The notes: a model not told the origin generated them from the letters alone. A DNA stretch of 64,000 bases from Chlamydiales bacterium (GCA_022601445.1 JAJACP010000004.1:23300-87299), one strand, 5' to 3'. Shown: positions 60,614 through 60,729, counted from the stretch's first letter. Made by a program: numbers and translations.

Positions 60614-60729
60614 TATTTTGGCCGATAAATGGCCGTATTCGATGAATACGGCCAAAATAGCTTGAGAAATGGCCGTATTCTTGATAAAATGGCCGTTATG
60701 AGCTTACGTGATAATAAAATGGCCGTATT
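60614..60729. promoter_or_regulatory. Array of a 13-bp motif AAATGGCCGTATT (four direct copies, one inverted, one degenerate), phased at multiples of 10 bp in the divergent hydrolase / Fic-like promoter
   Basis: Direct copies start at 60627, 60667, 60687 (variant ..gttat) and 60717, giving spacings of 40, 20 and 30 bp. The inverted copy is at 60644-60658. There is a perfect hairpin ggccgtattc-gat-gaatacggcc at 60631-60653, and an outer inverted pair tattttggccg 60614-60624 / cggccaaaata 60649-60659. Confidence 0.75.

Follow-up and report, generated by a model that had tools for sequence, protein, structure and literature searches.

A phased array of short repeats over the predicted promoter of a His-less Fic-fold gene in Chlamydiota: a candidate autogenous operator

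Introduction

The closest known case to the locus described here is CccR of Yersinia pseudotuberculosis, a class II Fic protein with a helix-turn-helix (HTH) domain at its C-terminus that represses its own promoter; its operator, AGATAATCAT-N26-ATGATAATCT, is made of 10-bp repeats placed near the -35 and -10 elements (PMC9755527). An HTH-Fic autorepressor is accordingly already known. A C-terminal HTH is also found in CbFic2, in which DNA binding regulates the activity of the protein (PMC10628234). The AbiEi antitoxin, in which an N-terminal winged helix is joined to another functional domain, is reported to exert autorepression by cooperative binding to repeats that lie in its own promoter (PMC7319586).

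The locus examined here lies in a stretch of 64,000 nucleotides of chlamydial DNA, called the window throughout, in which positions are counted from the first letter. A cluster of short repeats precedes and enters a gene for a protein predicted to combine an N-terminal winged helix with a Fic-fold domain. A reading of the window made from the sequence alone had proposed that the cluster is an operator-like array, plausibly for the downstream protein. Literature searches yielded no published description of this protein family or of its array.

Loci compared

For comparison, 35 loci were taken out of genomes that represent their species, most of them Chlamydiota MAGs and some on contigs of 0.6-2.3 Mb, and 80 metagenome loci (44-79% identity) and two IMG/VR contigs (40%) were added to these. 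About 3 kb on each side of the gene was examined in the relatives, and 64 kb in this genome. Individual loci are referred to by L numbers.

Repeat copies in the window

The features of the locus are collected in Table 1. The sequence AAATGGCCGTATT occurs exactly at three places on the + strand (60627-60639, 60667-60679 and 60717-60729), and the copy at 60687-60699, AAATGGCCGTTAT, differs from the other direct copies by two mismatches. The sequence-only reading had counted four direct copies with start-to-start spacings of 40, 20 and 30 bp; the spacings are correct and the copies at 60627, 60667 and 60717 are exact, the one at 60687 being a variant. The claimed hairpin between the first copy and an inverted copy is present with a perfect stem; since its arms (60630-60640 and 60644-60654, with a 3-nt loop) comprise 11 nt each and are 100% complementary, the stem is 11 bp long and not 10. 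An outer palindrome is formed by TATTTTGGCCG (60614-60624), which pairs with CGGCCAAAATA (60649-60659), and it encloses the degenerate copy TGGCCGATAA that had been placed at 60616-60626. It was also correctly seen that three direct copies offer ATG-GCC-GT in one frame (60629, 60689 and 60719); the copy at 60667 reads N-G-R-I in the long ORF.

Table 1. Features of the array, the predicted promoter and the gene (window positions)
Feature	Position	Strand	Basis or remark
Degenerate distal copy, TGGCCGATAA at 60619-60628	within 60614-60628	+	Palindrome and sequence inspection
Copy 1, AAATGGCCGTATTC	60627-60640	+	Left half of head-to-head inverted pair upstream of -35
Inverted copy, reads GAATACGGCCAAAATA on the + strand	60644-60659	-	Right half of the inverted pair
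Predicted -35, TTGAGA	60662-60667	+	Sigma-70-like consensus match
Copy 2, AAATGGCCGTATT	60667-60679	+	Within the spacer of the predicted promoter
Predicted extended -10, TGaTAAAAT	60682-60690 (hexamer 60685-60690)	+	Sigma-70-like consensus match
Copy 3, variant AAATGGCCGTTAT	60687-60699	+	Overlaps -10, expected transcription start and start codon
Winged-helix/Fic-like gene, 447 aa	60698-62041	+	Start by homology
Copy 4, AAATGGCCGTATT	60717-60729	+	Codons 7-11 (K-M-A-V-L), within the first helix of the predicted winged helix
Decayed duplicate of the locus	63334-63610	+	Array and most of the gene lost

The 8-mer core TGGCCGTA was found four times in the 64-kb window, all occurrences lying no more than 100 bp apart, against an expectation of 0.69; four occurrences were reached in none of 100 shuffles of the window, and a chance origin of the cluster is excluded. 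The rest of the window contains no further copy of the motif. Tandem Repeats Finder reported nothing on the array region because unrelated linkers separate the copies, and a description of the cluster as a tandem-repeat array was consequently rejected.

Predicted promoter and start codon

The segment 60400-60900 contains a single sigma-70-like site, composed of TTGAGA, a 17-nt spacer and TAAAAT (10/12 matches), with a TG one base upstream of the -10 hexamer. A predicted promoter of the form TTGnnn-N16-19-TAnnnT surrounds a motif copy in 64 of 79 non-redundant loci, and in 45 of those 64 the spacer is 17 nt long; TAAAAT, the commonest -10, is present in 30 and TTGAAA as the -35 in 36. The motif copies thus overlap the predicted core promoter, both in the 17-18-bp spacer and at -10/+1. 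Copies on the predicted spacer, on -10/+1, in the leader and in the first codons occupy positions typical of repressor sites.

The long ORF of 60629-62041 corresponds to the database entry S4CHLAM2_07530 of a Chlamydiales MAG, which was called as 470 aa. Most of the best 120 homologues (67-84% identical) start at MSLRDNKMAVLRQLG, with the N-terminus MSLRDNK, which equals the window ATG at 60698, so that by homology the conserved start is predicted to be this codon and not 60629, and the annotation should be changed in this sense. Many database entries of the family are over-extended because the motif itself contains an ATG. The over-extended gene calls read MAVF, KWPY or NGRI, that is, the three frames of AAATGGCCGTATT, and a motif read in all three frames upstream of the gene is conserved as DNA rather than as a translated repeat.

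Compared with most relatives, the window, L001 and L033 lack a unit of about 22 bp that would follow the -10 copy and precede the start codon; in the other loci this unit carries Shine-Dalgarno bases and one motif copy. As a result of the loss of this ribosome-binding-site unit, the ATG at 60698 stands only 8 nt past the -10 hexamer, and the mRNA of the window gene may be leaderless. Copy 3 is the fusion left when the unit was lost, and the loss looks like the product expected from recombination between two direct copies. The ORF is intact in both the window and L001, the two proteins being 84% identical.

Conservation of the array

An array was found in the same place at nearly all of the about 115 homologous loci, which cover 40-84% protein identity. 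It usually consists of an inverted pair upstream of the promoter, equivalent to that of the window in most of the loci, followed by a copy in the 17-18-bp spacer and a copy on the -10/start site; extra copies are often present at the start codon and within codons 7-11. Each locus holds 5-8 copies. From the 5' end the layout reads TGGCCGTATT, 5-8 nt, AATACGGCCA and sometimes a second AATACGGCCA about 21 bp further on; then a short A-rich linker, TTGAAA, a copy within the 17-18-nt spacer and TAAAAT fused to the next copy; and finally about 12 nt with AGGAGG-like bases, TGGCCGTA abutting the ATG and the copy at codons 7-11. In an alignment of 24 sequences (A3) the columns without variation are those of the motif cores and of both promoter hexamers (-35 and -10), the linkers being variable, and the AATACGGCCAAAA block of the inverted pair is nearly invariant.

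In the sequence compared, the motif is essentially confined to the region upstream of the Fic-like gene. The upstream windows, 9.9 kb in total, contain TGGCCGTA 153 times versus 6 times in the other 260 kb, the whole window included, and matches out of place are singletons at chance frequency, apart from a pair in L008. Neither the 64-kb window nor the flanks of about 3 kb in the relatives revealed a second regulated gene.

The spacings between neighbours of the same orientation are mostly 20 bp (76 cases) or 21 bp (46), with 19 bp (16), 11 bp (18) and 30 bp (15) also represented. They cluster at multiples of about 10.3 bp (circular resultant 0.84-0.85 for a period of 10-10.5 bp), and the peak at 20-21 bp corresponds to about two helical turns. 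The earlier suggestion of helical phasing on one DNA face, drawn from four copies, is borne out by the relatives, so that phasing characterises the family as a whole.

The upstream 170 nt vary in copy number among the loci. L061 contains five tandem 20-bp units, L074 five 21-bp units, L023 three 42-bp units and L054 six inverted copies, which suggests expansion and contraction through recombination between copies. The two IMG/VR contigs, L116 and L117, hold a relative of 40% identity preceded by an array of a different motif, TGTCGCGAT / TGTCGCTAA, in direct and inverted orientation (L117, 2850-2960), so that the habit of carrying an array reaches the edge of the family.

The copy at codons 7-11 was examined in 31 distinct genes of the TGGCCGTAT class with Ala-Val at codons 9-10. 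The Ala of codon 9 is encoded by GCC in 23/31 genes, compared with 21% gene-wide, and the Val of codon 10 by GTA in 30/31, compared with 22%; the codon before Ala-Val ends in TG in 28/31 genes (ATG, TTG, CTG or GTG). In L085 the sequence M-A-V-K is encoded with GCA GTT AAA, matching the upstream motif of that locus, ATGGCAGTTAAA. This bias of synonymous codons indicates that the in-gene copy is maintained as a nucleotide site and is under selection at the DNA level.

N-terminal domain and motif variants

AlphaFold models of the N-terminus contain helices at residues 3-16, 23-30 and 36-49 and strands at 52-55 and 62-65 (pLDDT 84 for the isolated domain). Residues ~3-65 are thus modelled as a winged helix, in which E36 would open the third (recognition) helix and K58 would lie at the tip of the wing. 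Foldseek aligned this domain with regulators of the IclR, ArsR/SmtB, Fur and MarR types at about 2 Å rmsd. The Pfam matches to it were below threshold and all to winged-helix families, and neither Pfam nor NCBIfam gave a significant HTH call for this protein; a named HTH family is therefore not provided by the sequence, and the winged-helix assignment comes from the AlphaFold2 models.

While the promoter layout is constant, the motif differs between clades: TGGCCGTAT is found in most, and TGTCCGAAT, TGGCCGATA, TGTCCGATA, TGGCCAATA, TGTCCGGCA, ATGGCAGTTAA and TGTCGCGAT in others. The N-terminal 72 residues were found to vary with the motif far more strongly than the remainder of the protein. 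Among pairs with a C-terminal identity of 0.7-0.8, the N-terminal identity averaged 0.725 for the 330 pairs that share a motif and 0.429 for the 76 pairs whose motifs differ; motif and domain share ancestry, and these pairs are not independent. A balanced accuracy of 0.9 was reached by 8.9% of the N-terminal columns versus 0.26% of the C-terminal ones. The residue at position 58 separates G from T at motif position 3 perfectly (K/R versus T/N/S), and position 36 is mostly E in one of these two classes and N/D/S/T in the other. Simple residue rules have exceptions, such as L072, which has the helix DRTLRRW and retains TGGCCGTAT. A one-residue rule, in which Ser or Thr in the helix would correspond to G or T in the site, was rejected in view of exceptions. 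The co-variation points to the winged helix encoded by the gene itself as the probable reader of the motif.

Fic-fold domain

The C-terminal part of the protein matches Pfam PF02661 (Fic) at 36 bits, with a cut-off of 24, and Foldseek retrieved FICD, SoFic and CbFic2 for it. The Fic signature, YLQAFVDVNKRTAR, is located at 61559-61600 (residues Y288-R301). The canonical signature HPFx[D/E]GN[G/K]R with its catalytic His is absent from the window protein: QAFVDVNKR aligns to HPFIDGNGR of human FICD, and Gln replaces the His. Gln at this position is invariant in the close relatives (alignment A1) and occurs in 132/133 motif-bearing representatives, down to about 33% identity. This family-wide replacement makes canonical AMP transfer by the domain unlikely, as judged from the sequence. 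The inhibitory helix of class II, (S/T)xxxE(G/N), is present N-terminal to the Fic core; its SxxxEG motif is kept, SSRLEGN aligning to TVAIEGN of FICD, and is invariant in alignment A1. The C-terminal HTH of CccR, SoFic and CbFic2 is absent.

A search of a library clustered at 50% identity gave at least 554 clusters at E <= 1e-30, and the protein looks like a member of a large His-less Fic-fold family. The relatives of at least 67% identity come mostly from Chlamydiota MAGs. An affiliation with defence systems or phages was considered and is weak: the PADLOC and PHROG matches cover the generic Fic core only, and just two IMG/VR contigs, at 40% identity, hold a relative.

Flanking genes and decayed copies

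The decayed duplicate listed in Table 1 matches 60494-60524, 60566-60595, 61619-61695 and 61938-62031. The block missing from it, 60596-61618, includes the array together with the opening ~920 nt of the coding region, about two-thirds of the gene, and the duplicate also lacks an internal piece. The statement that it had lost exactly the array does not hold, a block of about 1 kb having gone that comprised the array and much of the gene. Between the intact gene and the duplicate lies a gene on the - strand (62293-63090) for an Rce1-like CAAX-type intramembrane protease (Pfam PF02517, 65 bits).

On the other side, about 55-100 bp separate the distal copies from the start of a divergent alpha/beta-hydrolase gene (59680-60561, - strand). 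The duplicate (63334-63414) repeats the initial ~70 nt of this gene as well as some of the intergenic DNA, so that the segment once duplicated extended beyond the Fic gene. Among the related loci examined the neighbour upstream varies and the hydrolase is not one of the shared ORFs, so that any co-regulation with the Fic-like gene would be local.

In L008 (2349-2612) another copy of the gene, which is truncated or decayed and reads in the direction of the intact one, lies one gene downstream of it, as does the duplicate of the window; the array of this second copy is partly degraded. The extra motif copies of L008 are the array of this decayed tandem copy, and a second regulated gene at that locus was rejected.

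A block of about 37 nt, TGGAGGTGGAGAGACGCATTCAGAACTTTTGATTGG, with sharp edges and always in the orientation of the gene, usually follows directly after a terminator-like hairpin in the relatives (L009, 2842-2913 and 4500-4571; L041, 1857 and 3387; L045, 134 and 2571; L048, 332, 1823 and 4395; and others). It occurs 1-3 times per locus and in several loci flanks the Fic gene on both sides, as if such blocks marked the boundaries of a cassette. Rfam gave no match for the block, and the 64-kb window does not contain it.

Proposed function of the array and alternative readings

It is probable, in our judgement, that the array is an autogenous operator, to which the protein would bind with feedback on its own promoter. 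The winged helix of the 60698-62041 product would recognise a site of about 10 bp, TGGCCGTAT(T), with one protomer per site. Sites about two helical turns (20-21 bp) apart would align the bound protomers along one DNA face, where they could touch each other, probably through their Fic-fold domains. Binding would be nucleated at the head-to-head pair upstream of the -35. Accumulating protein would then occupy the direct copies, which lie in the spacer, over the -10/start site and within the first codons, and the filled copies would exclude or block RNA polymerase and produce negative feedback. We infer the protein itself as the binder, cooperativity of binding, and repression rather than activation, the last being probable from the position of the sites.

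The proposal that the winged helix of the downstream protein reads an operator-like array was already part of the sequence-only reading, and comparison with the relatives supports it: a conserved array covers a conserved -35/-10 pair with a phasing of about 10.3 bp, changes in the motif go together with changes in the N-terminal domain, especially in its recognition helix and wing, and this domain is modelled as a winged helix. The term iteron in its replication sense is not supported, nor is the option of a partner encoded outside the window. No conserved neighbour or partner gene was detected among the 115 loci, the shared ORF clusters being otherwise antisense shadow ORFs within the Fic gene, and no adjacent co-oriented antitoxin gene is conserved among them.

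Within the 64 kb of this genome and the flanks of about 3 kb in the relatives, the only visible target of the putative regulator is its own gene; this implies a second function for the protein and counts against the proposal, and more distant targets, forming a regulon, are conceivable. It is tempting to speculate that the family represents a single-gene, self-insulated module in which a His-less Fic-fold sensor or effector has its state set by assembly on its own array, although we regard this extension as rather improbable. If it were true, the array would serve both as feedback operator and as allosteric platform, as DNA does for CbFic2, and the changes in motif and recognition helix would represent diversifying 'incompatibility' specificities of the clades, as in iterons or ParB-parS, which would stop cross-talk between paralogous or incoming copies. 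The locus would then be a new DNA-tethered, one-polypeptide toxin-antitoxin-like or defence switch, and more than a repressor site.

A different regulator, encoded at a distance, could read the array as an operator, the Fic-like gene being one member of a larger regulon. This would be compatible with the coverage of 64 kb of the genome and with an identity of the binder that is reached by inference; against it, no neighbour gene is conserved in the 115 loci, the motif is essentially absent from 260 kb outside the upstream region of the gene, and it tracks the N-terminal domain much more closely than the C-terminal one, which is unexpected for an unrelated reader. We consider such a regulator unlikely.

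Equally little credence is given to the array as a DNA scaffold that sets the state of the Fic-fold domain, in a switching of the CbFic2 kind, with transcriptional feedback as a by-product. The 5-8 copies per locus, with the tandem expansions of L061, L074 and L023, are more than a simple repressor needs, the copies run on into the coding region, the inhibitory SxxxEG motif is retained, and in CbFic2 DNA binding mediated by the HTH regulates enzyme activity (PMC10628234). On the other hand, the copies sit precisely on -35, -10 and +1, a placement required of an operator but not of a scaffold alone, and with Gln in place of the catalytic His throughout the family canonical AMP transfer is an unlikely activity to be switched. 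The scaffold and the autogenous operator are compatible and do not exclude each other.

The repeats are very unlikely to act at the level of RNA, be it through a 5'-leader or translational operator or through a hairpin for translation or termination. Copies do stand at the start codon and at codons 7-11, and copy 1 and the inverted copy could form the 11-bp hairpin; however, this hairpin and the best-conserved copies lie upstream of the -35/-10 pair and would not be transcribed from that promoter, no terminator-like site was called at the palindrome, and helical phasing at 20-21 bp is a property of duplex DNA. Rfam contains no credible match: the best, MicF (60625-60722, - strand), reached 31 bits (E = 0.018), the gathering score being 79, and we take it as a chance match caused by the A/T-rich repeats. 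Membership of a known RNA family was thus rejected, the Rfam matches being sub-threshold and due to chance.

It is highly improbable that the repeats are replication-origin iterons or a centromere-like partition site of the RepA or ParR/parC type, even though direct repeats of ~20-22 bp and an inverted pair over the promoter of a winged-helix gene reproduce the layout of iteron plasmids. The product is a Fic-fold protein and not Rep or Par, neither a partner ATPase nor any other gene is conserved in the vicinity, the relatives lie on chromosomal contigs of 0.6-2.3 Mb, and the array has neither an AT-rich dip (GC 0.415) nor a DnaA box nearby; an origin or partition site was rejected on these grounds.

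Translation of the repeats as an N-terminal Met-Ala-Val peptide of a 470-aa protein from 60629, which the sequence-only reading had named as the outcome contrary to its proposal, would suit the ORF open from that position and the 470-aa call of the MAG entry but is excluded, with hardly any residual probability, by the MSLRDNK start of most homologues, by the reading of upstream copies in three frames (MAVF, KWPY, NGRI) and by the conservation of the inverted copies as well.

The proposed autogenous operator turns an anonymous repeat cluster into a specific and testable regulatory model for a large family in which an N-terminal winged helix is joined to a Fic fold with Gln for His. About ten operator variants, each paired with variant recognition helices and wings, constitute a data set on specificity, in which E36 and K58 are the predicted specificity residues.

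Comparison with known systems

CccR and the present protein have in common that one polypeptide unites a Fic fold with an internal SxxxEG helix of the inhibitory type and with an HTH for DNA binding, which is a predicted one in the present case, and that repeats sit at the -35/-10 of the own promoter, which is a predicted one here. The family differs from CccR in the position of its DNA-binding domain, N-terminal instead of C-terminal, and in the loss of the catalytic His: CccR possesses H192 and AMPylates, whereas Gln is found family-wide here. Moreover, one inverted pair separated by 26 bp in CccR contrasts with 5-8 copies, mostly direct, phased at 20-21 bp and extending into the coding sequence. 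Binding was shown for CccR; for this family it is predicted from sequence comparison.

In the Phd/Doc and FicTA toxin-antitoxin operons autorepression is exerted via the DNA-binding domain of the antitoxin. They resemble the present locus in that the expression of a protein of the Fic/Doc fold is, or would be, subject to feedback by way of an operator at the promoter of that protein. The inhibitory helix, which comes in trans from the antitoxin in FicTA, is found here in cis. They differ in that one chain here combines the DNA-binding, inhibitory and Fic-fold parts with no second gene, and in that the catalytic His is absent.

Iteron plasmids of the RepA type have a winged-helix gene beside direct repeats with a period of ~20-22 bp, and an inverted repeat over its own promoter brings about autorepression. 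The likeness to the present array is one of geometry only, as there is no Rep protein and no origin anatomy here and the context is chromosomal.

Cooperatively filled arrays of short repeats are represented by omega of pSM19035 on its heptads, ParR on the 11-bp iterons of parC flanking the promoter, and MetJ on the metboxes. As in the present family, many short direct and inverted sites cover a promoter and the copy number varies between promoters; the proteins, however, are of the ribbon-helix-helix class and occupy contiguous sites of 7-11 bp, in contrast to a predicted winged helix with sites two turns apart.

AbiEi shares with the present protein an N-terminal winged helix, here a predicted one, fused to a second domain and repeats in its own promoter, and differs by having inverted repeats, a two-gene operon and a nucleotidyltransferase toxin as partner. 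The kind of element is already known, and what is new here is a multi-copy, phased array that co-varies with its putative reader across a large family.
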